64,000 bases of DNA from Gemmatimonadota bacterium (GTDB lineage: Bacteria > Gemmatimonadota > Gemmatimonadetes > Gemmatimonadales > GWC2-71-9), in contig QHUS01000046.1 of assembly GCA_003222035.1 (NCBI GenBank), positions 4,299 through 68,298 on the forward strand, given 5' to 3'. The position numbers were made by a program, and so were the translations under genes. This document shows, in pieces, positions 7,329 through 59,300 of the stretch. How positions within the stretch are numbered: position 1 is the first letter of the stretch; every line of letters starts with the position of its first letter. The notes below the pieces were generated by a model, which did not search any database, was not told the origin of the DNA, and was given only the letters and a program-made list of their open reading frames with translations.

Positions 7329-8572
7329 GCGGCCTCCAGCGCTGCCACCGTCTCCACGTGAGCGGTCTGAGGGAACAAATCGAACGCCCGCACTGCGGTT
7401 ACGCGGTAGGTGGCGCTCAGCCGGTGCAAGTCGCGAGCCAGGGTCGCGGGATCGCACGAGATGTAGACCAACCGGCCGACCGGATCCCCGGTGAGCCGGA
7501 GTGTGACGTTCCAGTGCAAACCACCGCGTGGCGGATTGACCACGACGGCGCTCGGCTCGGGGAGCGTGGAGATGACGTCTTCGGCTCGGCCTGCGATGAA
7601 CCGCACGGGACGGGGCACGTTTCGTCCGCGGGCCCAATCGATCGCCTGCTCGTCCGCGTCGACACTCACCACCTGCGCCCCGCGCTCCGCCAACTCGACG
7701 GCCGTGTCGCCGATCCCCCCATACAGGTCCCAGACCACGGCGCCCCGCAAGTCCCCCAGCTGCTCGACCGCCCAGCGGCGCGCGATCACGCCCATCTCGG
7801 GGTTGATCGGCTCGAACGCCGTCGCGGGGAATCCCGTGGCGGGACCGGCCATCACGCGCGCGGCACCATCCACCGGCTGCCACCAGCAGATGACCGCGTC
7901 GCGATCGGGGAGGTTGAGCGCGTCGCGCAAAGTCGCGGCGTTCTGCCACGGCTCGCCGGCCGATTCGGCGATGACGTGGCGCCGGCCCTCGCGGTCGAGA
8001 CGGAGCGTAAGATGGGTGAGCTTTGCGGGCAGCAGCGCGAGCTGCGGCCGCAGCTCGCGCCACAACGCCGTCAACCGGAAGTCCGCGACGTGGCAGTCGA
8101 GCAATGCGAATACCGCTGCGGGTCGGTCATATGGATGGAATCCGACTGTCCGACTGTCGGACCGTCCGACCGCTTTGACGCTCATCGAGAGCTTCGCGCG
8201 GTAGCGCCACTCCTCCACCGCTTCGACGATCTCGGGATCGGCCAGGTCCAGCTTGGCGATCCGCCGTAGAGCGTCCCCCACGATCGCGCGCTTGGCTGCC
8301 AGCTGTGCCTCGTACGTCATGTGCTGCAGCTGGCAGCCCCCGCAGCGATCCCCTGTGTAATGGGGACAAGCCGCCGTGACGCGGTCGGCCCCGGGGGCGA
8401 CCACCTCGGCGAGCTGCCCGCGCGCGAAGGTCTTGTGCAGCCGCACGCCGTCACGGAGCCGCACTCGCTCTCCGGGCGCGGTGCGGGCGACGAACACGGC
8501 GCGTCCGTCCGCCAGCCGTCCGACCCCGTCGCCCCCCGCCGCGATCGCCGTAATCGCGACCACGTTGCTCAT
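7325..8572 (-). CDS. RNA (uracil-5-)-methyltransferase, RlmD/TrmA family, with an N-terminal TRAM domain
   Basis: TRAM-like N-terminus, a Cys cluster (CPHYTGDRCGGCQLQH), the SAM-binding motif VWDLYGGIGD, and a C-terminal ISCDPATLARD motif. Confidence 0.85.
   Translation of the reverse strand: MSNVVAITAIAAGGDGVGRLADGRAVFVARTAPGERVRLRDGVRLHKTFARGQLAEVVAPGADRVTAACPHYTGDRCGGCQLQHMTYEAQLAAKRAIVGDALRRIAKLDLADPEIVEAVEEWRYRAKLSMSVKAVGRSDSRTVGFHPYDRPAAVFALLDCHVADFRLTALWRELRPQLALLPAKLTHLTLRLDREGRRHVIAESAGEPWQNAATLRDALNLPDRDAVICWWQPVDGAARVMAGPATGFPATAFEPINPEMGVIARRWAVEQLGDLRGAVVWDLYGGIGDTAVELAERGAQVVSVDADEQAIDWARGRNVPRPVRFIAGRAEDVISTLPEPSAVVVNPPRGGLHWNVTLRLTGDPVGRLVYISCDPATLARDLHRLSATYRVTAVRAFDLFPQTAHVETVAALEAA
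8141..8172. repeat. 4x8-nt array (TCCGACTG-type) inside the RlmD-like gene (in frame)
   Basis: TCCGACTG TCCGACTG TCGGACCG TCCGACCG. It encodes GRSDSRTVG. Confidence 0.8.
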
Positions 8573-10086
8573 TGACCGATCGCTTCCCGCCGCGCGGTGG
8601 CAAGCCAGACGGACGGTCGGACAGTCGGACCCGCAGGCTGGGGTGGCGTGGGGGCCGACGCTGCGGCTTGCTCGGCCAGCAGGGCCGCCACCGCTGCGAG
8701 GGGTCGCAGCAGCTCGGGGGATGGCTCGCCGACGAGCAGGCGCGCCCCGGCGCGCTCGAGGTAGGTGATGTCGATGTCGCCGCGCTGGAATTCCGGATCG
8801 TCCATCACGCGCAGGTGGAAGGCCTGCGACGACGGGATGCCGACGATCGCGAGCTCCCGCAGGGCACGCCGCATCCGCTCGAGGGCCACGCCCCGCGTCT
8901 CACCCCAGACGATCAGCTTCGCGATCAGCGAGTCGTAGTACGTCGTGATCTCGTTGCCCTCCTCGACGCCCCCATCCCAGCGCACGCCCGGGCCGCCCGG
9001 GATGCGCAGGTATTGCACGACGCCCGTCGCAGGCATGAAATCGTTCGCCGGATCCTCCGCCGTGATGCGACATTCGATCGCATGCCCGCGTGGCTGTAAG
9101 GTGCCGGCGTGCACGCGCAGCGGCTGACCCATTGCGACGCGGAGTTGCTCGCGCACGATGTCCACACCGTAGACGAGTTCGGTCACCGGGTGCTCGACCT
9201 GGAGACGCGTGTTCATCTCCAGGAAGTAGAACTCGCCGCTGGGCGCCAGCAGGAACTCGATCGTACCGGCACCGAGGTATCCGACCGCGCCGGCAGCCGA
9301 GGCCGCCGACTCGCTCATGCGGCGGCGCAAGGGCGGTGTGACCGCCACTGACGGCGCCTCTTCGATGAGCTTCTGATGCCGGCGCTGGATGCTGCACTCC
9401 CGCTCGCCCAACGCGACCACGCGTCCGAACGAGTCCGCCAGGATCTGGATCTCGATGTGTCGTGGCCGCTCGAGGTACTTCTCGAGGTACACCTCTCCGG
9501 CGCCGAACGCCTTGAGGGCTTCGCCCGTGGCCGCTTCGAACGCGCTGTCCAGCTCCGCCTCCTCGCGCACGAGTCGCATGCCCTTCCCTCCCCCGCCGGC
9601 CACGGCCTTCAGCAACACCGGATAGCCCAGTCGCGCCGCCTCCGCGCGGGCCTGCACGTGATCCGCGACCGCGCGCGTGCTGCCCGGAACGACTGGCACG
9701 CCCGCCTGCTGCATGCGGCGCCGCGCTTCAATCTTATCGCCCATCGCTCGAATCGCGGCCGCTGACGGTCCGATGAACACGAGGCCCGCCTCGACCACCG
9801 CCTCCGCGAAGGGCGCGCGCTCGGACAGGAAGCCGTACCCGGGATGTACCGCGTCGCACTGGGTGTCGCGGGCTGCGGCGACGAGTTTCGCGATGTCGAG
9901 ATACGACTCGGCCGCGGGTGCCGGGCCGATGGGCACCGCCATATCGGCGGCGCGCACGTGCGGCGACAGTCGGTCGGCCTCGGAGTACACCGCCACGGCT
10001 GTGAGGCCCTCCTCGTGGCACGCGCGGATCACCCGGAGCGCGATCTCTCCGCGATTCGCTACAAGGACTCGTTTAATAGTGGGCAT
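8569..10086 (-). CDS. accC: biotin carboxylase subunit of an acetyl/propionyl-CoA carboxylase (no fused BCCP)
   Basis: [19 protein letters not shown]...HPGYGFLSE...GGGGKGMR...[14 protein letters not shown] motifs. ATGA overlap with the downstream gene. Confidence 0.88.
8607..8630. repeat. 3x8-nt array (NGTCGGAC-type) at the 3' end of accC (in frame)
   Basis: AGACGGAC GGTCGGAC AGTCGGAC. It encodes PTVRPSV. It is complementary in sense to the array at 8141-8172, 435 nt away. Confidence 0.75.
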
Positions 10087-24958: not shown

Positions 24959-25044
24959 TGCCGAGGGCAGGACTCGAACCTGCACGGGGATCGCTCCCCA
25001 AGGGATTTTAAGTCCCTTGCGTCTACCGATTTCGCCACCCCGGC
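24959..25044 (-). tRNA. tRNA-Leu (anticodon UAA), long variable arm, CCA not encoded
   Basis: Minus strand: GCCGGGGTGGCGAAATCGGTAGACGCAAGGGACTTAAAATCCCTTGGGGAGCGATCCCCGTGCAGGTTCGAGTCCTGCCCTCGGCA. It has a 7-bp acceptor stem, an anticodon loop CTTAAAA, a T-loop TTCGAGT and discriminator A, and is followed by CCT. Confidence 0.9.
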
Positions 25045-29463: not shown

Positions 29464-31111
29464 GCAGCTCCGCCGCGTGGCTCAAGGCGGTCCGCATGTC
29501 GGGGTCGCCGAGCATACGCGCGAGCTCCCGGGTGCGGGCGTCGCCCGTGACGACCTGCACGTCGCTCGTCGCAATTCCACCGCGCGCCCCTTTGGCCACG
29601 ACCAGGTGGTGGTCGGCATAGACACCGATCTGCGGAAGATGGGTGATCACGAGCGCCTGCCGGCCGCCGCCGGTTCGCGCGACGGTCGCGAGCGCCGCGC
29701 CCACCTGCCCGCCCACCTCGCCGCCGATGCCCTGGTCGACCTCGTCGAACACGAGCGTAGGCACCGCGTCGTGCTGCGCCAGGACGACCTTCAGCGCCAG
29801 CATGAGCCGTGAGAGCTCGCCACCTGAGGCGACCTTCGAAAGCGGGCGGGCTTCCAGGCCGACGTTGAGCTGCACCTCGAACGTCACGTCCTCGGCACCA
29901 TGTGCGTGCTGCGTGGTGCGTGGTTGCAACCGCGCCGCGAAGCGGCCACCCTGCATGCCGAGCGCTGGGAGCAGCTCGTTTACGGCGTTCGCCAGGCGAG
30001 CGGCGCCCTTCGTCCGCGTGGCAGTGAGGGCGGCGCAGGCCCCCGCGAACTCCGCCGCGGCGGTCGCACGCTGCTCGGCGATGGTGCGCAGGTCCAGGTC
30101 CGCCGTGTCGAGCAGCTCGAGCTCGCGCGCGGCGCGATCGCGGGTCGCGAGGACGTCGGGCACCGAGGGACCGTATTTCTGAGTGAGCCGGAACAACACG
30201 TCCCGGCGCTGCTCTACCGTGGCGAGCCGCTGCGGGTCGCTCTCGATCCCGGCGGCGTACTCGCGCGCCGCCTGGGCCAGCTCCGCGAGATTGGCGAACG
30301 CGCCGTCCAGGAGCTCCTGCCACTTGGCCACCGCTGGCGAGGGATCGAGGCGCGTGAGGCCGGCGAACAGCTTGGCCGCGCGCGAGAGCCCGCCCGTGTC
30401 GATCGCCTGCTCGAGCTCGCGCGACAGGCGCCCCAGCTCATCGGCATGGGCAAGGCGCTTCGACTCGACGTCCAGCGCCTCCACCTCCCCCGCCCGGGGT
30501 GCGGCCTTCTCGATTTCGTCGACGACATGGCGCAGGTAGTCCGCTTTGCGGCGCACCTCCTCGCGGGCGGCCGTGAGCTCCTGCTCGCGCCGCTCGAGCT
30601 CATGCAAGCGGTCGTGGGCATTCCGCACCGCGGTGCGTTCGACGACCGCGTCCGCGTAGCTGTCGAGGATATCGCGCTGGGCATCTCCGCGGAGCAGGGA
30701 TTGCGTCTCGTGCTGACCGTGGAGGTCCACCAGCAGAGCGCCGAGCTGCGCCAGGACACTCACGGTCGTGGGACTGCCGTTGACCCAGGCGCGGGAGCGC
30801 CCCTCTGCCGTGATCTCGCGCTTGAGAATCAGCCGCCCGTCCTCCAGCTCCACCCCCAGGCTGGTGAAGGATGGTGGAGGACGGTGGAAGATGGTGGAGG
30901 TGAAGTCAAAGGCTCCCTCGATCACGGCTCGTTCCGCGCCGGGGCGGACGACGTCTGCCGAAGCGCGCTCGCCAAGCAGGAGGGCGAGGGCGTCCACCAA
31001 CATGGATTTGCCCGCCCCCGTCTCGCCGGTAAGGACGTTGAGACCACGAGCGAGGGGGAGCGTGACGTCGGCAATGACCGCGAGATCGCGGACGCGCAGC
31101 TCCGCCAGCAC
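29390..31111 (-). CDS. recN: DNA repair protein RecN
   Basis: LRVRDLAVIADVTLPLARGLNVLTGETGAGKSML...ASGGELSRLMLAL...LVFDEVDQGIGG motifs. GTG start. Confidence 0.9.
   Translation of the reverse strand: MLAELRVRDLAVIADVTLPLARGLNVLTGETGAGKSMLVDALALLLGERASADVVRPGAERAVIEGAFDFTSTIFHRPPPSFTSLGVELEDGRLILKREITAEGRSRAWVNGSPTTVSVLAQLGALLVDLHGQHETQSLLRGDAQRDILDSYADAVVERTAVRNAHDRLHELERREQELTAAREEVRRKADYLRHVVDEIEKAAPRAGEVEALDVESKRLAHADELGRLSRELEQAIDTGGLSRAAKLFAGLTRLDPSPAVAKWQELLDGAFANLAELAQAAREYAAGIESDPQRLATVEQRRDVLFRLTQKYGPSVPDVLATRDRAARELELLDTADLDLRTIAEQRATAAAEFAGACAALTATRTKGAARLANAVNELLPALGMQGGRFAARLQPRTTQHAHGAEDVTFEVQLNVGLEARPLSKVASGGELSRLMLALKVVLAQHDAVPTLVFDEVDQGIGGEVGGQVGAALATVARTGGGRQALVITHLPQIGVYADHHLVVAKGARGGIATSDVQVVTGDARTRELARMLGDPDMRTALSHAAELLRRASATPEARSGTALPRGRVPRR
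30863..30902. repeat. 4x10-nt array GGTGGAGGNN inside recN (in frame)
   Basis: GGTGAAGGAT GGTGGAGGAC GGTGGAAGAT GGTGGAGGTG. It encodes TSTIFHRPPPSFT. Confidence 0.85.
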
Positions 31112-39410: not shown

Positions 39411-41763
39411 GCTCACCCTCCAGGGCCTTGAGACCCTGCTCCAGCACGGTATCCACCTCGCGCTCACGCAGGGTGCGCGCCGGATCGCGGAACGTGCAGT
39501 GCCAGGCTACGCTGCGGTACCCCTCCGGGATCCCGGACCCGCGATACTCGTCGAACACCTCGAGCCGCTCGAGCAGGCTCCCCGCGGCCCGCCGCAGGAC
39601 GTCGGACACCTGGGCCGCGCTGACGCCTGGCGGGAGCAAAAGCGCGAGGTCGCGCTCAACGGGCGGTTGCGGCGGCAGCGGCCGGTAGGTGATGATCCCG
39701 CGCTCGGCCAGCGTCAACCGCACCTCGAAGCCGAACAGCGGCGCCGCCCACACGGGGGCGTCGGCCTCGAGGGGTCCCGCCCAGCCCAACACGGCCCCGT
39801 TCCCCCGTTCCACCGCCTCCCACCCTACCGCACCGCCTGCCAGCGGCTGCAGGTCGCAGGACGGCGCGGCGGCGGCCACCGCTAACTCAAAGTGGTACTT
39901 CAGGTCCCATATGTCCATATCAGGTACTTTAGCACCATCGGACCAGTGGGGCGGCCTGCGGGCCCCGGTCAGAACCCCCGCTACCGAAGTCCACTCGTCG
40001 ATCGCACTCGCCCTCCGCCGAAACACTGTTCCCACCTCGAAGAGTCGCACGTCGCGGTTGCGATTCGCCCAATTGTGCTCAACGCGCCCGATCAAGCCGG
40101 GAATGAGGCGCCGCCGCAGGTGGGCTTCCTCCACCGACATGGGGTTGAGGATCGCCACCGCGTCGGGCCCGTCCGCGGATCCGATGGGCAAGGTGCGAGC
40201 CTCGAGCAGGCCGGCGGAGGCGAGTGCGTCTCGGACCCGCGCGCGAGCCCGCTCTTCGGGGGCATCGGGCACGGTGCCGGGCCGGTAGGCGCGCAACTCG
40301 TCGGGGAACGCGTCGTACCCCTTGAGGCGGGCGACTTCCTCGATCAGGTCGACCTCGCGCGTTACGTCGGGGCGCCACCCCGGCACCTGGACGGCCAGGC
40401 GAGCGTCCTTCGGCGCCACGAAGAAGCCGACGCTGGTGAGCAGCCGCTCTACCTCGGAGCGCTCGATCGACACGCCGAGCAGCGTGTCCACGCGGTCGGG
40501 GCGAAGGAAGATCGTGCGCTCCTGCTGCGGCTCCGGCCACAAGTCCAGCGCGGGCGCTCGGATCTCGCCTCCTGCCACAGCCGCGATCAGCTCGACCGCC
40601 CGCCGCAACGCGTCGGGCATGCCGAGCATGTCGATGCCGCGCTCGAACCGGTAGCTCGACTCGCTCGACAGCCCGAGCGCCCGGCGGGTGCGTCTGATGC
40701 GGGTCGGTTGGAAGTAGGCGCACTCGAGCACCAGATCGGTGGTGTCGCTGCTCACCTCCGATTCCGCGCTCCCCATCACGCCCGCAACGATGGTGGGCCG
40801 CTCGGCATCGCAGATCGCGGTCATTTCGGTCGTGAGTGTGCGGGTCGCGCCGTCGAGCGTGACGATTTTCTCGCCGGGCCGCGCGCGCCGCACGACGACG
40901 GCCGGTCCGCGCAGCTTGGCGAGGTCGAACGCGTGCAGCGGCTGGTTCAGCTCGAAGAGGATGTAGTTGGTTGCGTCGACCACGTTGTTGATCGGCCGCT
41001 GTCCCACCGCGGTGAGCCGCTCGGCAAGCCAGGCGGGACTGCTCCCCACCCGGACGCCCCGGATCACCGCGATCATGTAGCGCGGGGCGCCCTCGGGATC
41101 TTCCAGGCGAACCTCCACGCCGTCCACGACGCCCCGGTCGGACTGTCGGACGCTCGGACGGTCGGTCAGTGCCTTCGCTCCCGGGATGACGGGAAGCTTT
41201 ACGGGGGCACCAAGCGACGCGCCGAGCTCTCGGGCGACGCCCTTGTGACACAGGAGATCCGGCCGGTTCGCGGCCACGTCGATCACGATCTGGTGGTCGG
41301 CGAGGCCGACGGCGTCAACGAACCGGGTCCCCGGCGGGGCGGCGGTATCGAGCTCGAGAATGCCCGACTGATCGGCGCCGAGCCCGAGCTCCTTGGCCGA
41401 GCAGAGCATGCCATTCGATTCCACGCCACGGATCTTTTTGCGCTCGAGCTTGAGCCCTCCCGGCAGCACGGCACCGACAGGAGCGTAGGGATAGGTCTTG
41501 CCGGCCTGTACGTTCGGCGCGCCGCACACGACTTCGACCGGCCCGTTCGCGCCTCCGGCGTCGACGAGACAGAGAGACAGGCGATCGGCGTCGGGATGCT
41601 TTTTCACCTCGAGCACGCGCGCGATGCGGACGTCGCCCAGCTCCTGGTGGAGCGGGATCACGGCATCTACCGCGGCGACGTGCAGTGTCAGCCGCTCGGC
41701 GGCGTCGCGCGCGTCGAGGGGCCGGTTGAGGAGCGCCTCGAGCCAGCGGCGCGAAACGATCAT
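39385..41763 (-). CDS. pheT: phenylalanine-tRNA ligase beta subunit
   Basis: N-terminal tRNA-binding domain (HPDADRLSLC), then B3/4, B5 and FDX-ACB regions. ATGA overlap with pheS. Confidence 0.95.
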   Translation of the reverse strand: MIVSRRWLEALLNRPLDARDAAERLTLHVAAVDAVIPLHQELGDVRIARVLEVKKHPDADRLSLCLVDAGGANGPVEVVCGAPNVQAGKTYPYAPVGAVLPGGLKLERKKIRGVESNGMLCSAKELGLGADQSGILELDTAAPPGTRFVDAVGLADHQIVIDVAANRPDLLCHKGVARELGASLGAPVKLPVIPGAKALTDRPSVRQSDRGVVDGVEVRLEDPEGAPRYMIAVIRGVRVGSSPAWLAERLTAVGQRPINNVVDATNYILFELNQPLHAFDLAKLRGPAVVVRRARPGEKIVTLDGATRTLTTEMTAICDAERPTIVAGVMGSAESEVSSDTTDLVLECAYFQPTRIRRTRRALGLSSESSYRFERGIDMLGMPDALRRAVELIAAVAGGEIRAPALDLWPEPQQERTIFLRPDRVDTLLGVSIERSEVERLLTSVGFFVAPKDARLAVQVPGWRPDVTREVDLIEEVARLKGYDAFPDELRAYRPGTVPDAPEERARARVRDALASAGLLEARTLPIGSADGPDAVAILNPMSVEEAHLRRRLIPGLIGRVEHNWANRNRDVRLFEVGTVFRRRASAIDEWTSVAGVLTGARRPPHWSDGAKVPDMDIWDLKYHFELAVAAAAPSCDLQPLAGGAVGWEAVERGNGAVLGWAGPLEADAPVWAAPLFGFEVRLTLAERGIITYRPLPPQPPVERDLALLLPPGVSAAQVSDVLRRAAGSLLERLEVFDEYRGSGIPEGYRSVAWHCTFRDPARTLREREVDTVLEQGLKALEGELGVRRRES
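41137..41168. repeat. 4x8-nt array GTCGGACN inside pheT (in frame)
   Basis: GTCGGACT GTCGGACG CTCGGACG GTCGGTCA. It encodes TDRPSVRQSDR. Confidence 0.8.
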
Positions 41764-43349: not shown

Positions 43350-43362
43350 CTGAATCCTCGTA

Positions 43363-43426
43363 GGTGTCAGGTGCCGGGTGTCAGCTGTCAGGGCCCACCG
43401 GCACCCGACACCTGACCCCTGACACC
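43363..43426. repeat. hairpin with 4x7-nt arms (GGTGTCA / TGACACC) filling the infC-rpmI junction
   Basis: GGTGTCA GGTGCCG GGTGTCA GCTGTCA, an 8-nt loop, then CGGCACC CGACACC TGACCCC TGACACC. About 21/28 complementary. It ends 1 nt from the infC TGA and starts 13 nt from the rpmI ATG. Confidence 0.85.
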
Positions 43427-43427
43427 T

Positions 43428-44022: not shown

Positions 44023-44083
44023 TCGTCCGTCAACCCGTGTTCCGTCGTCCGTGAGTTGCGGATGGCGGATTACGGAAGACGGA
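44023..44083. repeat. imperfect hairpin of heptamer arrays (TCCGNNN / NNNCGGA) in the infC leader
   Basis: The right arm has CGGA at an exact 7-nt period (44059, 44066, 44073, 44080): TTGCGGA TGGCGGA TTACGGA AGACGGA. The left arm is ..GTCCGTCAACCCGTGTTCCGTCGTCCGT. The loop is about 6 nt. Confidence 0.7.
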
Positions 44084-44175
44084 CCATGCTCTCAGAACCC
44101 TAGAGCACTCCCGACAGCGGGAGGCAGCAGGTGAGGCGCACGCGGCGCCCGCTTGCCGTGTTGTCGGGGCTAATC

Positions 44176-45078
44176 TTAGCCCGCCTTGAGCGGGTCCACA
44201 AGCCCGAACGCCTTGCCGTCGCGCCCCAGACGACCGGCGACGATATCGGGATCGTGCTCGAACAGCAGCAACCATCCTTCCGCTTCGGCCCGCGCGTACA
44301 GGCGGCGCTTCGACTCGAGCGTCACGAGCGGCTCCAGGTCGTAGCCCATGATCCAGGGGAGCGGGAGATGGGCACTGGTAGGCACAAGGTCCGCCAGGAA
44401 GCACGCCCGTTCGCCCGCGCTCTCGACCAGCACTGACTGATGATACGGCACGTGCCCCGGCGTCGGCATGCACCGGATCCCGGGCACGACCTCCGCGTCA
44501 CCATCGATGGGCGTGAACGGCACCGGCTCGAAATTATGTGGCAGATAGCTCGCCGCCGTGCGCTCGTTGGTGTGGCGCGCGAATTCGAGCTCGCGTTTTT
44601 GGACCACGTACGTCGCCTTCGGGAAGCTCAACTTCGTCGGACGGTCGGACGGTGGGACGGTCGGACCGTCCGGCGCTTGGTCGGCCGGCTCGCGATAGGT
44701 ATTGCCGCCGGCGTGATCGAAATGGAGATGGGTATTGATCACCCAGCGAACGTCATCGGGCCGGTATCGGAGCTCCGCGAGCGCGTCTTCGATCTGGGTC
44801 GGCCCGTGCTTCCCCTGATTCACGACGCCGTAGATGTCCCTAAACTTGTCGTCCTCTTTGTTCCCCAGGCCCGTGTCGACCAGGACGAGCCCGTCGCCGT
44901 GCTCGATCAGGAGGCAGCGCAGCGCGAGGGGGATGCGATTGCGATCGTCGGCGGGGATGCGGCGTTGCCACAGCGGCTTCGGTACCACGCCGAACATCGC
45001 GCCGCCGTCGAGGTGCTGCCTGCCGCCCTCCAGGGCATGACACTTCAGTCGACCGACCGTGAGAGACGTGTGGGGCAT
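44176..45078 (-). CDS. MBL-fold metallo-hydrolase
   Basis: LVDTGLG...THLHFDHAGGN (HxHxDH) motifs. The ATG at 45076-45078 shares one base with the upstream TGA. Confidence 0.8.
   Translation of the reverse strand: MPHTSLTVGRLKCHALEGGRQHLDGGAMFGVVPKPLWQRRIPADDRNRIPLALRCLLIEHGDGLVLVDTGLGNKEDDKFRDIYGVVNQGKHGPTQIEDALAELRYRPDDVRWVINTHLHFDHAGGNTYREPADQAPDGPTVPPSDRPTKLSFPKATYVVQKRELEFARHTNERTAASYLPHNFEPVPFTPIDGDAEVVPGIRCMPTPGHVPYHQSVLVESAGERACFLADLVPTSAHLPLPWIMGYDLEPLVTLESKRRLYARAEAEGWLLLFEHDPDIVAGRLGRDGKAFGLVDPLKAG
44636..44675. repeat. 5x8-nt array GTCGGACN inside the MBL-fold hydrolase gene (in frame)
   Basis: GTCGGACG GTCGGACG GTGGGACG GTCGGACC GTCCGGCG. It encodes PDGPTVPPSDRPT. Confidence 0.8.
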
Positions 45079-46943: not shown

Positions 46944-47095
46944 GGCGGAATCTAACGCGGAACGCGGAAGGCGGAGCCGAAGTCGGAACGCGGAAGGCGG
47001 AACGCGGAACAGCAAGGAAAGGTCGCTCGGCTTGCCGCCCTCGGAGCGAAGTTCGCTTGACTGTTCCGCATTCCGCGTTCCGAGTTCCGAGTTCT
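46944..47095. repeat. heptamer-armed inverted-repeat element, copy A (GCGGAAN units / loop / NTTCCGC units)
   Basis: CGGAA recurs at 46958, 46965, (46972, 46978), 46984, 46991, 46998 and 47005. TTCCG recurs at 47064, 47071, 47078 and 47085. The inner 26 nt of the arms are 23/26 complementary, with a 52-nt loop. The element fills the rex-stop to arcA-ATG gap. Confidence 0.9.
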
Positions 47096-47714: not shown

Positions 47715-47731
47715 TGTGAATTATTTCACAA
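47714..47731. promoter_or_regulatory. Rex operator (ROP), a perfect palindrome TTGTGAA-TTAT-TTCACAA
   Basis: Exact match to the TTGTGAAnnnnTTCACAA Rex consensus. It spans from the rex ATG (47712-47714) to beyond the ksgA TGA (47726-47728). Confidence 0.8.
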
Positions 47732-48550
47732 TCGTGCGCTCCAACGCAAGAGTCGGGCGAAGATTTCCGGCGCCAACGTCTCGGGACGCGCCGCGGGATC
47801 GAGCCCGAGCGCCCCGAGTCCTTCCTCGACCTGTGCGGCCGGGCGCCCTGTCGCACCCAGCAGCACGTTGCGCAGCTGTTTGCGGCGGCGCGCGAAGCAG
47901 GCGGTGACGAACCGGCGAAACGCCGCGAGCTCGGCGACCGCGACGAGCGGATGGGCGAGCGGCGTGAGACGGAGCAGCGCGCTCGCGACGTTGGGGCGTG
48001 GCGTGAACGCGCCGGCGCGAACCGGGAACAGTTTCTCCACGCGACACACGGCTTGCACACCGACCGAGGGTGCGCCGTACGTCTTCGAGCCCGGCCGCGC
48101 CGCGATGCGATCGGCCACTTCGGCCTGGACGAGAAACACGATGCACGCCGGGAGCGGCGGCGTGAGGGCTTTGTCGATCAGCGGGGAGGTGATGGCGTAG
48201 GGGATGTTGCCGATCACCTTCAATTGCGGATTGGCGATTGCGGATTGCGGATTGGCAAGGCAAGCTACGGCCAGCGCATGCCAGTCCTGCTTGAGGGCGT
48301 CCCCCGCCACGACGTCCACATTGCCCAATCCCCCATCCGCAATCCGCAATCCGCAATCATGAGCCAGCCGGCGGTCCCGTTCGATGGCGATTACGTAACG
48401 TACGCGAGGGGCGAGGACGGCCGTCAGGCTCCCCTCCCCCGCCCCGATCTCGACCACGACGTCCCCGGGCGTCGGATCGAGGGCGTCGACGATGCGCTGC
48501 AGGATGTTCCGGTCGGTGAGGAAGTGCTGGCCGAGGGGGGGACGGGTCAC
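47726..48550 (-). CDS. rsmA: 16S rRNA (adenine1518/1519-N6)-dimethyltransferase
   Basis: LGQHFL, VVEIGAGEGSLT and IGNIPYAITSP motifs. GTGA overlap with the upstream stop. Contains two in-frame heptamer arrays (see the repeat feature). Confidence 0.9.
   Translation of the reverse strand: MTRPPLGQHFLTDRNILQRIVDALDPTPGDVVVEIGAGEGSLTAVLAPRVRYVIAIERDRRLAHDCGLRIADGGLGNVDVVAGDALKQDWHALAVACLANPQSAIANPQLKVIGNIPYAITSPLIDKALTPPLPACIVFLVQAEVADRIAARPGSKTYGAPSVGVQAVCRVEKLFPVRAGAFTPRPNVASALLRLTPLAHPLVAVAELAAFRRFVTACFARRRKQLRNVLLGATGRPAAQVEEGLGALGLDPAARPETLAPEIFARLLRWSARL
48224..48356. repeat. pair of inverted 5x7-nt arrays (TTGCGGA / TCCGCAA) inside the ksgA coding sequence
   Basis: 48224-48258 is TTGCGGA TTGGCGA TTGCGGA TTGCGGA TTGGCAA. 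48322-48356 is TGCCCAA TCCCCCA TCCGCAA TCCGCAA TCCGCAA. They are 29/35 complementary with a 63-nt spacer. Both are in frame (peptides LANPQSAIANPQ and DCGLRIADGGL). Confidence 0.9.
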
Positions 48551-50082: not shown

Positions 50083-50528
50083 CCCGCCCGAAGCGTCAGG
50101 CACACCGAGTTGCCCTTTTCGTTGAACGCGACCTGGTCCACGAGATGCCGCAGCACAAACAGCCCACGACCGTCCTCGCACTCGAGGCGGTCCGGGCGCG
50201 TCGGGTCGGGGACGTCCGCGGGATTGAAACCGTTCCCCTCGTCGGTCACGTGCAGTCGAACGGCGTCGCGTCCGACTTCGACGCGGATCTGGACAAGGCG
50301 GTCGGGGTCGTGGCGGTTACCGTACGCGATCGCGTTGGCGAGGGCCTCCGCGAGCGCCGTGCGGAAGTTGAATTGGATGCGCCGGGCCGACAGGGGACCG
50401 CCCGGCAGCTCGACTGCGATCAGCTCCACCGCCGGGCCGACATATTCGAGTGCGCTCGGCACCGCGAGCGACAACTCCGTCTCCCCTCCCGCCGGCCGGC
50501 GGACCTGGAGGCGCAGCGCGGTGGTCAC
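50079..50528 (-). CDS. anti-sigma regulatory factor (RsbW/SpoIIAB-like serine kinase)
   Basis: ORF 50079..51125 trimmed to GTG 50526-50528, 2 nt after the STAS stop. HATPase_c motifs NAIAYGN, DEGNGF and DGRGLF. Confidence 0.75.
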   Translation of the reverse strand: MTTALRLQVRRPAGGETELSLAVPSALEYVGPAVELIAVELPGGPLSARRIQFNFRTALAEALANAIAYGNRHDPDRLVQIRVEVGRDAVRLHVTDEGNGFNPADVPDPTRPDRLECEDGRGLFVLRHLVDQVAFNEKGNSVCLTLRAG

Positions 50529-52777: not shown

Positions 52778-52795
52778 CCCCGCCCCCTTCCCAGC

Positions 52796-52895
52796 GCGGA
52801 AGTCGGAACGCGGAACGCGGAACAGAAATGGGAGGTCGCTCGGCGCGCGACGCCGGTTTCGATGTTCCGCGTTTCGCCTTCCGCGTTCCGCGTTC
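52796..52895. repeat. heptamer-armed inverted-repeat element, copy B (same family as 46944..47095)
   Basis: GCGGAAG TCGGAAC GCGGAAC GCGGAAC, a 40-nt loop, then GTTCCGC GTTTCGC CTTCCGC GTTCCGC GTTC. The arms are 24/28 complementary. The loop shares AGGTCGCTCGGC with copy A. The element ends inside the recJ TGA. Confidence 0.9.
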
Positions 52896-55301: not shown

Positions 55302-57027
55302 CTCTCCTCCTCTTCGCGATCTTGTAGCGCGGGTAACGCTTGCGGAGCTCGTCGAACACGCGGCGCTTCTCCGCAATCAGGGATACCTGTCGCTCGGGGC
55401 TTTCGAACGGCAGCTGGTCGTCGAGCTGCTCCAGGTGCCGCTCGAGCCGCCGGGCTTCCATCCAGCTCACGGCCAGCTCGTACATTTCGTTCGGATCACG
55501 CCCGCCGAGCCCCTCCGCCTTGAGCAGCTCGTAGGCCCGCGCGGAGGTGTCGTCGAGCGCCAGGACCGCGTCGTCGGCGACGCTCTCGAACACGGCGCGG
55601 TACGGCGCGAACTCGACTTCCTCGGGGTCGACGGCGTCGGTCACGCGACTCTTCCAGGGTTCGCCCTCGAGCATCAGGAGCAGGAGGGCTTTCTCGGCGC
55701 TGGCGGGCAGGACGGGGGAGGACGGGGGAGGAGGGTGGAGGACGGTGGAGGGGCCACGCGCCCCGACTTCGCGCTCGAGAACGTCCTTCCGCACCCCGGC
55801 CGCCTCCGCTGCCCGGGAGATGTAGAGCTCCCGGGTAATGGGATCTTTCGCCGCCCGAATCGTCGGCAGGAGGCGATCGAGGGCTCGGCGCCGACCCGGT
55901 AGGGTACCGAAGAATCCTTTGCGGTCGAGGATCTGGATCTTCCGCTCCAGCACGTCGACCGCGTCCTCGAGGATCTGCTCGAGCGCCGCAGCTCCCCCCT
56001 TCTGCACGAGCGTGTCGGGGTCCTCGCCGCCGGGGAGCGTGGCCACGCTGACGCGCAACCCTTCGCGCAGCAGCTCGTCGCCCGCCCGGAAGGTGGCGCG
56101 CAGGCCGGCCTCGTCGGAGTCGTACAAGAGGATCACCTGCGGCGCGTGGCGTTTCACCAGCTGGGCCTGGTCCGGCGTGAGCCCGGTCCCGAGCGGCGCC
56201 CCCACCTCCTCGATACCGGCGAGCGACAGACGAAGCACGTCGAAATACCCCTCGACCAGGATGGCGCGCTCCGCCTTGCGCATCGCGTGCTTCGCGACGT
56301 GCAGGTTGTAGAGCAGTTGCCCTTTGTGGAAGATCGGGGTGTCCGGGGAGTTGAGATACTTGGGCTCTCCTTCGCCGAGAATGCGACCGCCGAACCCGAC
56401 CACGCGGCCCCGCAGGTCGTGAATTGGGAAGAGCAAACGACCGCGGGACCGGGGCGCGAGCGTGCCGTCCTCGCGTTTAGCCAACAGACCCGCCTCGAGG
56501 AGCACTTCGTCACGCACGCCCAAGACTTTCATCGCCTCGAGGAACGCCTTCCCCTTCGGGGCGTACCCGAGGCCCAGCGGCAGCACGGTGTCGAGATCGA
56601 GGCGGCGGGTCTTCAGGTAATCGCGAGCGATTTGGGCTTCGGGACTGTCGCGCAACTGGTGGGCGAACCAATCCGCCGCCGCGGCGACGGCGCTATAGAG
56701 CGGCTCGCGCGGATCGGGACCGGTGGGGCCGCGCTCGGGGATCGCGATTCCCACGCGACGCGCCACCTCGCGGACCGCGCTGGGATAGTCCATGCCGAGC
56801 TTCTTCATCAAGAACGTGAAGACGTCACCGCCGGCGTGACACACGAAGCAGTAGAACATCCCCTTCCGGGGGATGACCGCGAAGTTGCGATGCGCCCCGC
56901 CGTGAAACGGACACGCCGCCCGGTAATCGGATCCGGTGCGTTTCAACTCGACGTGCTCGCCGATGATCCCGACCAGGTCGGCCGCTTCGCGGACCTGCTC
57001 GATCACGTCGTCGGGAATCAGGCTCAC
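55285..57027 (-). CDS. dnaG: DNA primase
   Basis: Zinc finger CPFHGGAHRNFAV...CFVCHAGGD and TOPRIM (VEGYFD...DSDEAG). GTGA overlap with mutS2. Confidence 0.9.
   Translation of the reverse strand: MSLIPDDVIEQVREAADLVGIIGEHVELKRTGSDYRAACPFHGGAHRNFAVIPRKGMFYCFVCHAGGDVFTFLMKKLGMDYPSAVREVARRVGIAIPERGPTGPDPREPLYSAVAAAADWFAHQLRDSPEAQIARDYLKTRRLDLDTVLPLGLGYAPKGKAFLEAMKVLGVRDEVLLEAGLLAKREDGTLAPRSRGRLLFPIHDLRGRVVGFGGRILGEGEPKYLNSPDTPIFHKGQLLYNLHVAKHAMRKAERAILVEGYFDVLRLSLAGIEEVGAPLGTGLTPDQAQLVKRHAPQVILLYDSDEAGLRATFRAGDELLREGLRVSVATLPGGEDPDTLVQKGGAAALEQILEDAVDVLERKIQILDRKGFFGTLPGRRRALDRLLPTIRAAKDPITRELYISRAAEAAGVRKDVLEREVGARGPSTVLHPPPPSSPVLPASAEKALLLLMLEGEPWKSRVTDAVDPEEVEFAPYRAVFESVADDAVLALDDTSARAYELLKAEGLGGRDPNEMYELAVSWMEARRLERHLEQLDDQLPFESPERQVSLIAEKRRVFDELRKRYPRYKIAKRRRGAPGP
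55711..55750. repeat. 4x10-nt array GA(C/G)GG(G/T)GGAG inside dnaG (in frame)
   Basis: GACGGGGGAG GACGGGGGAG GAGGGTGGAG GACGGTGGAG. It encodes STVLHPPPPSSPVL in the linker before the C-terminal domain. Confidence 0.85.
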
Positions 57028-59300
57028 GCGCGGAACTCCACGATGGTGACGCCATGGCCGCCCTGATTCGGCGGCGCAAAGCCGAAGCGCGTGACCCGTG
57101 AGTCGGCGGCGAGCCGCTCGTGCACGAACTGACGCAGGGCCCCGGTGCCCTTACCGTGAATTACGCGGAGATACGGCAAATCGGCCGACACGGCATCGTC
57201 GAGGGCCTTGACGAGCAGCGGCTCGGCTTCGGCAACGCGGAGGCCGATGAGGGAGATCTCCGCAGCCGCGTCGACGGACGGTGTGCGAGCGGTGGAGGGC
57301 GGTCGAGGATGGTGGAGGGCGGTGGAGGGAGAGGCCTTACGTGCGCCCTTCAGCTCGTCCAGCGACATCCACCCTTCCCTGGCCGGATCCCCGGCCGTTT
57401 CCCCGGCCGTTTGTTCGATTGCTTTTTCTACGAGCCGCCGCGCTTCTTTCGCCGTCGCCTCGTCTACCGCGGCGCGCGCCCGGCCGAGCGCTTCTTCGAC
57501 CTTGCGGCGGGCTTCCAGGAGGTAGGCCCGCGCCTGCTCGCGCGCCTGGCGTTCGAGCCCCGACGCGCGCGCCTTCACCTCCTGTTCGCGTGCGGCTACC
57601 TCGGTGGCCCGAGTCTCGACCCGCTCGGCGTCGGCACGGAGCGCAGAGTCGCGGGCGGCGAGCTCTTGCTCACGGGCCTCGAGCTCCCGGGCGCGCGCCT
57701 CGACGGAGGCCAGGAGCGCGTCGAGCGTGCGCTCGGCGCGGGGCACGGCGCGCTCCGCGATCTCCAGGACCGGAGCGGCGACCCCGAGGCGGCGCGCGAT
57801 AGCCAGCCCGTAGGAGCGACCCGGTACGCCCTTGAGCAGGCGATAGGTGGGGGTCAACGTCTCGGCGTCGAACTGAAGCGACGCGTTCACGATCCCCACG
57901 GTGTCGGCGGCGAGCTGCTTCAAGGCACCCAGGTGAGTTGTCGCCAGCGTCACCGCGCGACGACGGGTGAGCGTCTGCAATACCGCCGTCGCCAGCGCGC
58001 CACCCTCGGCCGGGTCGGTGCCGCTGCCGATCTCGTCGAGCAGAATCAGCGATCCGGCACCCGCCCGCTCGAGAATGTCTCGCAGGACAGCCACGTGAGC
58101 GGAAAACGTCGACAGGCTCGCCGCGATCGACTGCCGATCGCCGATGTCCGCGAACACGTCGGTGAATACCGGAAGCACGGATTGCGGACCGATGGGCGGG
58201 ATGATGCCGCTCTGCGCCATGAGGACGAGCAGGCCCACGGCTTTGATCAGCACCGTCTTGCCACCAGTGTTTGGCCCGGAGACCAGCACGGTGAATTCGT
58301 CAGGTGCCAGGACGAGATCGAAGGGAACGGCATCGGGGACGAGCAGCGGGTGCCTGCCGCCGCGGATCTCCAGCGCACCCGGGCCGATCGACGGCGCGAA
58401 GCCGTTCACCTCCACCGCGTACCGCGCCCGAGCGCACAGGTCGTCAAACGCGATGCACATCTCCCACGCGGCGGCAATCGCCTCGCTCTCGGGGCGCAAC
58501 AGCTCGGTGAGGTCCCGCAGCACCTGCAGGACTTCGCGCTGCTGCGCAACCTCCGCCGCGCGCAGGGCGTTGCCGAGCTCGATCACTTCCGGCGGCTCGA
58601 CGAACACCGTGGCCCGCGTCGCCGACTCGTCGTGCACGATCCCGCCGATCCGGGCCCGCGCCGTGCTGCGCACGGGGATCACGTAGCGGCCTTCGCGCAC
58701 CGTGACGGCGGCATCGGGCGCACGCTCGGCGGGATCGAGGGCGGCGAGCATGGCTTCGAGCTTCTGGACCAGCCGAGCGCGTGCGTCACGAACGGAGCGG
58801 CGGGCGTGCGCAAGCCCGCGCGACGCACCATCCAGCACCTGACCGTCGCCGTCGAGCGAAGCGGCAAGCCGCTGCTCCAGTGCCTTCGGGGGAAGCTTCA
58901 CGCGGAGCGCCGCGGTCCGCGGCGCGTCGGTCTCGAGGCGCGCGAGCTCGGCAGCCACGACGCGCGCGGCCACCAGCGTGCGGCCTACGCCTGCCAGCGC
59001 CGCTCCCTCGAGTGCGCTCCCCGGCACGCCCAGCAGCTCGACCACAGCCGCGATGTCGGGGACGGGCTCGGCGCGGATGCCGTCGTCGGTGAGCAGCAGG
59101 GCGGCGAGCTCCGCCACCTGCGCGAGGGCGTCGCGGACGGTGCCGGGATCGGTGGAGGGGACGCGGTGGGTCACGCGCGCGGCGCCAAGCGGTCCCACGG
59201 CATGCGCCGCCACTCGCTCCAGCGCGGCCGGGAACTCGAGCGTCTCCAGGACTCCAGGGGTCCGTGGGCTGGCGCCCGGCGTCGGTGCCCCACCGGTCAT
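57024..59300 (-). CDS. mutS2: endonuclease MutS2 (with an Smr domain)
   Basis: Walker A SGPNTGGKT, DEIGSGTDP, and the C-terminal Smr motif LRVIHGKGTGALR. Confidence 0.9.
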   Translation of the reverse strand: MTGGAPTPGASPRTPGVLETLEFPAALERVAAHAVGPLGAARVTHRVPSTDPGTVRDALAQVAELAALLLTDDGIRAEPVPDIAAVVELLGVPGSALEGAALAGVGRTLVAARVVAAELARLETDAPRTAALRVKLPPKALEQRLAASLDGDGQVLDGASRGLAHARRSVRDARARLVQKLEAMLAALDPAERAPDAAVTVREGRYVIPVRSTARARIGGIVHDESATRATVFVEPPEVIELGNALRAAEVAQQREVLQVLRDLTELLRPESEAIAAAWEMCIAFDDLCARARYAVEVNGFAPSIGPGALEIRGGRHPLLVPDAVPFDLVLAPDEFTVLVSGPNTGGKTVLIKAVGLLVLMAQSGIIPPIGPQSVLPVFTDVFADIGDRQSIAASLSTFSAHVAVLRDILERAGAGSLILLDEIGSGTDPAEGGALATAVLQTLTRRRAVTLATTHLGALKQLAADTVGIVNASLQFDAETLTPTYRLLKGVPGRSYGLAIARRLGVAAPVLEIAERAVPRAERTLDALLASVEARARELEAREQELAARDSALRADAERVETRATEVAAREQEVKARASGLERQAREQARAYLLEARRKVEEALGRARAAVDEATAKEARRLVEKAIEQTAGETAGDPAREGWMSLDELKGARKASPSTALHHPRPPSTARTPSVDAAAEISLIGLRVAEAEPLLVKALDDAVSADLPYLRVIHGKGTGALRQFVHERLAADSRVTRFGFAPPNQGGHGVTIVEFRA
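57291..57330. repeat. 4x10-nt array GGTGGAGGNN inside mutS2 (in frame)
   Basis: GGTGGAGGGC GGTCGAGGAT GGTGGAGGGC GGTGGAGGGA. It encodes PSTALHHPRPPST in the linker before the Smr domain. A perfect 12-nt tandem duplication (TCCCCGGCCGTT x2) lies at 57388-57411. Confidence 0.85.

Follow-up and report, generated by a model that had tools for sequence, protein, structure and literature searches.

We found that the ksgA (rsmA) gene in a 64,000-nt stretch of a Gemmatimonadota genome (contig QHUS01000046.1, positions 4,299 to 68,298; hereafter the window) carries two inverted arrays of tandem heptamers, which are translated in frame, can pair with each other as a hairpin, and enclose native coding sequence of the gene. 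These arrays are probably an intragenic member of a genome-wide family of hairpin repeats, shaped at the DNA level and tolerated by an intact KsgA protein. Members of the family consist of a short tandem G-rich heptamer array, a loop, and the reverse-complement array, and belong to one soil Gemmatimonadales clade. Within this clade we observed a change of array length by three units, block alleles in near-identical backgrounds, and the wholesale replacement of an intergenic member. What is new and notable here is that native coding sequence of an essential gene lies between the arms, that the two arms co-vary across lineages, and that the whole block behaves as an exchangeable allele. All of the sequences used for comparison, which include related loci numbered from L001, are metagenome assemblies.

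Paired heptamer arrays within ksgA

The host gene (47726-48550, minus strand) encodes a 16S rRNA A1518/A1519 dimethyltransferase of 274 amino acids (aa) and was identified by its open reading frame (ORF) and by PF00398 (RrnaAD/KsgA), a domain that was found in every homologue of the window protein. Residues 5-267 match solved KsgA structures with E = 4e-38, a full-length match, and motifs I-IV are intact, with VEIGAG, IERD, GDAL, and GNIPY all present. On the coding strand, the 5' arm of the hairpin (48322-48356, minus strand) is a G-rich (GATTGCG)n array that encodes DCGLRIADGGLGN (aa 65-77), and the 3' arm (48224-48258, minus strand) is a C-rich (AATCCGC)n array that encodes LANPQSAIANPQ (aa 98-109). 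Read on the plus strand, the units are TTGCGGA, TTGGCGA, TTGCGGA, TTGCGGA, and TTGGCAA at 48224-48258 and TGCCCAA, TCCCCCA, TCCGCAA, TCCGCAA, and TCCGCAA at 48322-48356, and Tandem Repeats Finder picks up both arrays.

The arms are complementary at 29 of 35 positions in register, as compared to at most 23 when shifted by 7 and at most 15 at other shifts, and they contain a perfect 19-nt stem core (48236-48254 with 48340-48358). Among 2000 shuffles of arm 2, the maximum was 16 matches out of 21, against 19 out of 21 observed. The mRNA segment is predicted to fold into one long stem (-77 kcal/mol, z = -3.2). Across the genes compared, the best inverted repeat is mostly 20-33 nt in arm-bearing ksgA, while it is mostly 6-11 nt in arm-less and outgroup orthologues, a few of which have imperfect repeats of 16-18 nt. 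An earlier note on this DNA had described two inverted 35-nt heptamer arrays in frame in ksgA, with the same complementarity, a 63-nt spacer, and the capacity to pair as a hairpin; the sequence and the predicted stem bear this description out.

The loop of the hairpin is the native ksgA core between the arms (48259-48321, minus strand), whose 63 nt encode GNVDVVAGDALKQDWHAL, comprising the motif III strand VDVVAGDAL and the next helix. This segment aligns with motif III of solved KsgAs, including that of B. subtilis, in line with the earlier suggestion that the spacer is a conserved family segment, and it is also alignable with the arm-less Gemmatimonadales orthologues. We considered an invertible segment between the arms and found no support for it, as the core lies in the coding orientation in 121 homologues and in all loci.

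An AlphaFold2 (AF2) model of the window KsgA shows a Rossmann fold with a mean predicted local distance difference test (pLDDT) score of 84.8 and a predicted template modelling (pTM) score of 0.83. Arm 1 covers the end of helix 61-69 and the loop 70-77, with a block pLDDT of 64-70, and arm 2 falls in the loop 99-109, where pLDDT drops under 50 for residues 101-104; the two arms are separated by strand 78-82 (motif III) and helix 90-98. According to this model, the arms are probably two low-confidence surface segments, one where the helix that follows motif II ends and the other in the loop that precedes motif IV.

Solved KsgAs differ in length at both arm positions. The window protein exceeds arm-less sister lineages by ~6-7 aa in arm 1 and ~14-16 aa in arm 2, and outgroup Gemmatimonadota by ~3 aa and ~11 aa, while its excess over B. 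subtilis KsgA is only +2 aa and +6 aa. The proposal that the arms are paired, lineage-specific, in-frame insertions flanking a conserved motif is supported, and as insertions the arms stand out clearly only against arm-less sisters and outgroups. The further expectation that both positions would be ~6-9 residues shorter in E. coli is not borne out for arm 1, where the excess over what we take to be the E. coli sequence is only ~2 aa. Besides the arms, a C-rich tract at the start of ksgA (48530-48545), encoding an N-terminal proline run, is of variable length among near-identical strains: relative to the window, it is 6 nt longer in L081 and L082-L084, with the frame kept throughout.

Turnover and apparent exchange of the ksgA arms

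The closest proteins and loci to the window ksgA come from soil Gemmatimonadales metagenome-assembled genomes (MAGs). Arrays are present at the same two sites, 50-85 nt apart, in at least 17 Gemmatimonadales ksgA genes besides that of the window (L001-L010, L012, L013, L016, L018, L025, L026, and L031), and are absent in the sister lineages L017 and L019-L023 as well as in all outgroup Gemmatimonadota and Longimicrobiales compared. The lineages were compared on a segment that starts shortly before motif II and ends shortly after motif IV (window aa 55-122); it measures 204 nt in the window, 135-144 nt in L017 and L019-L023, and 165-168 nt in outgroups. In L011, L014, L015, and L024 the segment is extended and non-periodic, resembling decayed arrays. 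On a neighbour-joining tree of KsgA outside the arm segment, armed and arm-less genes are interleaved; therefore, the arms have been lost several times or gained several times. The ksgA arms are specific to one Gemmatimonadales clade, and outside this clade the encoded peptides are not conserved, which disposes of the possibility, raised in the earlier note, that they are shared across distant phyla.

At least nine unit types occur at the ksgA site. TTGCGGA is found in the window, L001, L002, and L009; RRTGCGG in L003, L004, L006, L007, and L018; and GGAACGC in L005, L010, L081, L085, and L087, while GCGGGAT (L013), GGTGTCC (L008), GGTATCG (L016), GCGTGGT (L012), GAGTGAA (L025), and GGGAAAC (L031) were each assigned to one locus. 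In each tabulated case, arm 2 is the reverse complement of arm 1. When all arms were compared in a cross-matrix, arm 1 matched its own arm 2 at a mean of 19.0 of 21 positions and the arm 2 of other lineages at 14.7. In a stem alignment of 15 sequences (A2), 85% of cells pair, as compared to 29-49% in slid controls, and changes on both sides are seen at 17 of the 33 stem pairs (51 cells), a level that none of 500 shuffles reached. Matching arm types were scored in 105 of 121 KsgA homologues; the remainder are mostly classification artefacts, with P0107 as the one true half-cassette, and mixed arm types are otherwise almost absent.

The arm peptides vary with the unit, for example, RIADCGL/NPQSAIRNPQ, RNAECGV/TPHSALRTPH, MRDAGCEMRD/HPASRISHPA, and GTRNAERGT/VPRSDFRVPR, and MRDAGCE, QVSGV, and WCVVRG were also seen at the arm position. 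In L025, the GAGTGAA units that fall in the TGA frame are altered, and the opposite arm mirrors the alterations, so that the arms are complementary at 32 of 32 positions. L090 has gained 21 nt (three units), in frame, in one arm only, namely the 3' arm (the equivalent of 48224-48258). Comparison of homologues showed that each arm type is tied to its own core haplotype. These results indicate that the nucleotide architecture, i.e., periodicity and complementarity, persists through unit turnover, and that the peptide is not conserved. The same peptides encoded without heptamer periodicity, which the earlier note had named as a contrary outcome, are not what close relatives show; they keep periodicity and complementarity while their peptides change.

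The arms, the core, and 8-9 nt on each side make up a tract of 150 nt (48215-48364, minus strand) that differs as a unit between near-identical strains. L081, a Joint Genome Institute (JGI) soil contig, differs from the window at 62 of 150 nt within the tract (~41%) and at only 19 of 3022 nt outside it (~99.4% identical). Its tract has GGAACGC-type arms and a core that differs at both synonymous and non-synonymous sites. The L085/L087 lineage comes nearest to it in this block, yet shares only ~75-80% identity with L081 in the flanks. This mosaic allele was recovered in three independent assemblies with small differences in background. L088 and L089 form a second pair in which divergence is concentrated in the ksgA cassette, and among the 121 proteins, pairs that are 96-99% identical outside the cassette bear different arm types. 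The 150-nt block therefore appears, from these sequence comparisons, to be exchanged as a unit between strains.

Heptamer-array hairpins across the genome

The earlier note treated the heptamer hairpin as a peculiarity of ksgA, but inverted heptamer arrays form a genome-wide family to which it belongs. Heptamer arrays are numerous in the window and related loci, where some octamer arrays are also found; loci of the clade have 9 pairs and 13 single arrays per 100 kb (22 arrays), as compared to 1.4 pairs and 4.9 single arrays per 100 kb in outgroup loci. In all 31 inverted pairs, a count that includes orthologous sets and hence pairs that are not independent, the G-rich arm is 5', and the median loop is 43 nt. 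The ksgA unit is often the same as the unit of other hairpins in the same genome; L004, for example, shows an alternating AGTGCGG/AATGCGG pattern at four loci.

Several members, to which no strand is assigned, lie between genes of the window. An inverted (CGCGGAA)n/(TTCCGCG)n hairpin at 46979-47094 (46944-47094 in its wider bounds) adjoins the rex stop codon (47094) and has 34-nt arms that are 88% complementary (fold -83 kcal/mol, z = -7.2). An inverted (CGCGGAA)n hairpin at 52795-52892 (to 52895 in its wider bounds; fold z = -4.6) adjoins the recJ stop codon (52894). The third, an inverted hairpin of (AGGTGTC)n and (GACACCT)n arrays at 43362-43427, lies between rpmI and the stop codon of infC; it has 26-nt arms that are 81% complementary and a 14-nt loop, and the same type occurs in L004, L008, and L016. 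Upstream of infC, degenerate (NNCCGTN)4 and then (NNNCGGA)4 arrays (44024-44085) match as partners at 14 of 18 positions; the TTGCGGA unit that had been pointed out in the infC leader (44056-44062) is indeed there, as part of the degenerate NNNCGGA array of four.

The recJ site shows replacement of an entire member. In the window, this hairpin has GGAACGC-type arms and a 40-nt loop, while L082 (757-855), L083, and L005 (640-740) carry a different element with TTGCGGA-type arms and a 21-nt loop. Arms and loop were replaced together, and both flanks are 99.6-100% identical between the window and these three loci. Except for this hairpin, L005 (QHUK01000047.1) is 100% identical to the window from 53529 to ~48740; past ~48740, from inside the SpoIIE-type phosphatase gene onward (to window 47098), it is only 75-88% identical. 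Either recombination of a large segment or chimerism of the MAG scaffold accounts for the switch. We had considered a transfer of the recJ hairpin between divergent genomes, as L005 shares the L082 hairpin, and withdrew it, since L005 is there 100% identical to the window lineage. Between recJ and ksgA, ~79 nt at window 50157-50234, at the junction of the genes for an RsbW-like kinase and a GAF-SpoIIE phosphatase, are absent from L082 and L083; at this junction, L082 has split gene calls and L083 a fused one.

An apical motif, approximately ATGGAAGGTCG(N)CGC...CGACC, with a small inner stem, recurs in the loops of intergenic hairpins whose arm units differ. It is present in the loop of the rex hairpin (47011-47030) and at the recJ site (52824-52843), as well as in L002:6845-6960, L010:6270-6400, L004:595-715, and others, and this asymmetric motif occurs in either orientation relative to transcription. 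A matrix built from the elements of other loci ranks the two intergenic elements of the window first and second of ~128,000 positions. The start of the window ksgA core ranks 6th of 127,962 positions, and we rejected it as a family loop, treating the match as a coincidence of the codons for N-V-D-V-V. The ksgA cores of other arm-bearing genes fail to score, with a mean of 1.8 bits as compared to -1.4 bits in arm-less genes. As intergenic members have the apical motif and ksgA cores are without it, the ksgA hairpin is not one whole inserted family element.

Single octamer or heptamer arrays (GTCGGACN, GTGCGTG, and TCCGACTG) are found in coding sequences at 41135-41165, 44636-44670, 29902-29924, 8141-8177, and 8601-8630; they lie in pheT, a gene for an MBL-fold hydrolase, recN, a gene for a RumA-like methyltransferase, and the part of accC that encodes its C-terminal tail. 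Neither for these nor for the arrays at 1112, 16275, and 63664 did a convincing partner arm turn up; the search for partners covered those three and the arrays at 29902, 41135, and 44636. The exact 21-mer (GCGGATT)3 is present in 54 IMG/VR stretches (L091-L144) with a G+C content of 39-70%, far more often than expected by chance. Single arrays predominate, and a few contigs (L097, L108, L122, and L130) carry many. This shows that the GCGGATT unit is not specific to the clade but leaves the ksgA pair unexplained. The window also contains tandem repeats of a second class, with a period of 10: G-rich decamer arrays with 4-5 copies each (GGGGAGGACG, GCGGTGGAGG, and AGGATGGTGG) lie at 55705-55751, 57289-57329, and 30858-30900, in or beside dnaG and recN.

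A scan against Rfam gave no family match to the hairpins, and around ksgA it gave only sub-threshold matches of miRNA precursors to the rex hairpin; at gathering score, the window has a single match, an 86-nt tRNA gene (24959-25044, minus strand). Scanning of ORFs in the 64-kb window brought up neither a transposase nor a recombinase or reverse transcriptase, which argues neither way. The genes annotated by Pfam are ordinary chromosomal ones (among them uppS, pyrH, tsf, rpsB, rplM, acc, rpsA, dxs, folD, rny, pheST, infC, recN, recJ, dnaG, dnaJ, and hrcA), and several ORFs have no match.

Origin and maintenance of the arrays

If the ksgA arrays belong to a hairpin family shaped at the DNA level, they would grow and shrink through replication slippage, and the arms would be held matched by DNA-level correction within the hairpin, through template switching or arm-to-arm conversion, with loss of unmatched recombinants possibly reinforcing the match. 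Arm-to-arm gene conversion and template-switch correction of palindromes and quasi-palindromes produce concerted change of both arms without selection on the product, although these processes account for neither the 7-nt periodicity nor the fixed polarity of the family. The point made in the earlier note, that simple slippage can hardly account for paired inverted arrays, stands. Alleles could then pass between strains via short-patch homologous recombination, which the highly conserved codons of motifs II and IV just outside the arms would anchor. The repeats would have no dedicated function for KsgA, and the encoded peptides would be merely tolerated.

Several observations weigh against this explanation. 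Covariation cannot separate selection from arm-to-arm conversion. Matched arms are kept across KsgA divergence to ~55% identity, which could mean a selected function and not neutral homogenisation, and the strict polarity of 31 out of 31 pairs could likewise reflect selection for function. Insertion of a single family element cannot explain ksgA arms that enclose native coding sequence. In addition, a mosaic or chimera in at least one contig (L005), in data that are entirely metagenomic, means that long-range linkage is not secure.

Selection could act on RNA, the hairpin being a functional structure in the ksgA mRNA or in the transcript of a spoIIE-ksgA-rex operon, where it could be processed (by RNase III or otherwise), block exonucleases, or make translation pause. 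The stable long stem predicted for the mRNA (-77 kcal/mol, z = -3.2), the strong covariation of the arms, the maintenance of the hairpin at the same ksgA site over deep divergence, and the position of intergenic relatives directly past stop codons, like mRNA stabilisers of the repetitive extragenic palindromic (REP) type, are all consistent with such a role. However, selection on the sense RNA would predict an excess of G:U pairs, and among the non-Watson-Crick cells of the stem we counted 13 G:T or T:G against 19 A:C or C:A, i.e., no G:U excess over A:C. The asymmetric intergenic loops lie in either orientation to transcription, and no Rfam family matches the hairpin. Together these data, which are few and not independent, favour a DNA-level, strand-symmetric process over an RNA-level one. 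Furthermore, the sister lineages L017 and L019-L023 do without the hairpin, and RNA pairing gives no reason for a 7-nt tandem periodicity. We consider a function in RNA unlikely.

A dedicated polar system at the DNA level, either a hairpin-recognising, REP/RAYT-like transposase or recombinase or a templated synthesis of repeats, could write, copy, and replace matched arrays, and under it the ksgA cassette would be an actively mobilised or converted element. Such a system would fit the uniform polarity of the 31 pairs, the small pool of unit types that recurs at many loci within and between genomes, the apical motif shared by intergenic members (with the two window elements at ranks 1 and 2 of the matrix), the wholesale replacement of elements at orthologous sites in near-identical strains, and the high array density in this clade only. 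On the other hand, none of the scanned ORFs of the window encodes a transposase, recombinase, or reverse transcriptase, no target-site duplication is evident, and the ksgA arms were not inserted as one element, because they enclose native sequence. The L081 core, moreover, resembles an imported ksgA allele, which ordinary homologous recombination can explain. On this evidence a dedicated system is doubtful as the source of the ksgA cassette. The broader idea, that in this clade a polar DNA-level system puts matched arrays in place around short pieces of DNA, essential genes included, keeps them homogeneous, and exchanges them, seems to us unlikely, with a hairpin-specific recombinase, a transposase, and a templated repeat-adding activity as the candidate enzymes; if it is true, cassettes such as that of ksgA would be actively rewritten units and recombination hot spots, and not passive repeats.

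Phase variation, in which gain or loss of heptamers would switch ksgA off by frameshift and give reversible kasugamycin resistance in soil, has in its favour a unit that is not a multiple of three, the presence of three perfect units, the variation of array length in L090, and the fact that loss of KsgA gives kasugamycin resistance. However, none of the 120 listed homologues and none of the loci is truncated or out of frame, the sole length change of three units (+21 nt) is in frame, the same arrays occur in essential genes (pheT) and intergenic DNA, and the paired inverted arrangement is left unexplained. We found no frameshifted alleles among homologues and loci, rejected a phase-variable contingency locus, and regard this mechanism as very improbable. 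Diversifying selection on the arm peptides as surface loops of KsgA (e.g., inhibitor escape), with the nucleotide features as by-products, would agree with the distinct cassette alleles in near-identical backgrounds and with the link between each arm type and its core haplotype. Yet the intergenic recJ hairpin shows the same allele replacement, selection on peptides would not maintain heptamer periodicity or reverse complementarity, and the arms fall in low-confidence loop segments of the AF2 model, which leaves this possibility with very little to recommend it. That the arrays or the cassette exchange are assembly artefacts from repeats shared between loci or strains is exceedingly improbable: the comparison data are all metagenome contigs, and L005 drops abruptly from 100% to ~80% identity to the window, possibly as a chimeric scaffold, but more than 100 independent assemblies of several origins have the arrays, matched and in frame. 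The mosaic allele came up three times on slightly different backgrounds, and mixed arm types hardly ever occur. The arms are not a short-read artefact, as L012 (428 kb) and L031 (844 kb) have them too; both are very long contigs with Flye-style names, which suggest assembly from long reads.

The nearest described phenomenon to the ksgA family is the convergent heptamer pairs of Xanthomonas and Nostoc, i.e., the simple-sequence-repeat pairs GGGAATC and GGGGAYT/STRR (Rehm et al. 2015, PMC4692102). A Xanthomonas genome has 70-75 convergent inverted pairs, which can form stem-loops, among ~185 arrays; the arrays typically have ~4 copies, are spread chromosome-wide, and are mostly intergenic, with a mean distance of 28 nt from the upstream stop codon, while 7-11% are intragenic, and the repeat type is kept between species as the length varies (PMC4692102). 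The Gemmatimonadales arrays are similarly tandem 7-nt repeats of ~4-5 copies, dispersed (22 per 100 kb), with close, convergent inverted pairs (31 pairs). The rex, recJ, and infC hairpins are likewise intergenic and near the upstream stop codon, unlike the ksgA pair and the single arrays of pheT, the MBL-fold gene, and recN. Xanthomonas and Nostoc have one dominant unit with G3-4 tracts, read as G-quadruplex-forming, whereas here there are many unit types per genome, and such tracts do not characterise them: GCGGATT, GCGGAAC, GCGGAGT, and GGTGTCA have GG only, with GGG in GCGGGAT and GGGAAAC. Neither a conserved in-frame pair around native coding sequence, as in ksgA, nor cross-lineage arm covariation or block exchange is reported there for those arrays, which come from other phyla.

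Rickettsia palindromic elements are a dispersed palindromic family found in frame in unrelated housekeeping genes and compatible with protein fold and function; they are contiguous (~150 bp), insert as a unit, and encode a conserved peptide (PMC10969869, summarising Ogata et al. 2000, 2002). Similarly, the same unit types here are in frame in ksgA and also present at other loci of the same genomes. Unlike those elements, the ksgA arms are tandem heptamers that enclose 63 nt of native, homologous coding sequence, and their peptides differ with the unit type.

REP doublets (REPINs) and bacterial interspersed mosaic elements (BIMEs) consist of two inverted short repeats with a spacer of tens of nucleotides that form a long hairpin, and several families can occur per genome; they lie mostly just downstream of genes and persist for long at orthologous sites. 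The Gemmatimonadales elements share the inverted repeats, the spacer hairpin, and the several families per genome. REPs, in contrast, are imperfect palindromes and not tandem heptamers, are extragenic by definition, and depend on a RAYT transposase, while the ksgA member is in frame within coding sequence, and no transposase, RAYT/Y1 included, was found among the ORFs scanned in the 64-kb window. A miniature inverted-repeat transposable element (MITE) also differs, as no flanking duplication was seen on reading the hairpin sequences and the interior in ksgA is native. In the literature, we found no description of this hairpin family for Gemmatimonadota.

With the ksgA arrays read as a tolerated member of a DNA-level hairpin family, this gene offers a clean natural case in which a process at the DNA level dictates part of a protein sequence, and not the reverse. 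A universally conserved enzyme of ribosome biogenesis carries a structured DNA repeat, and the peptide that it encodes is free to change. The ksgA cassettes form an alignable, dated series of hairpin alleles, with at least nine unit types, decayed forms, losses, and swaps between near-identical strains, which lets one ask how heptamer-array hairpins arise, stay matched, and spread; similar repeats have been noted in Xanthomonas and cyanobacteria without explanation. The hairpins are also sites of allele replacement and of possible assembly errors, and are thus relevant to strain-resolved metagenomics of soil Gemmatimonadota.

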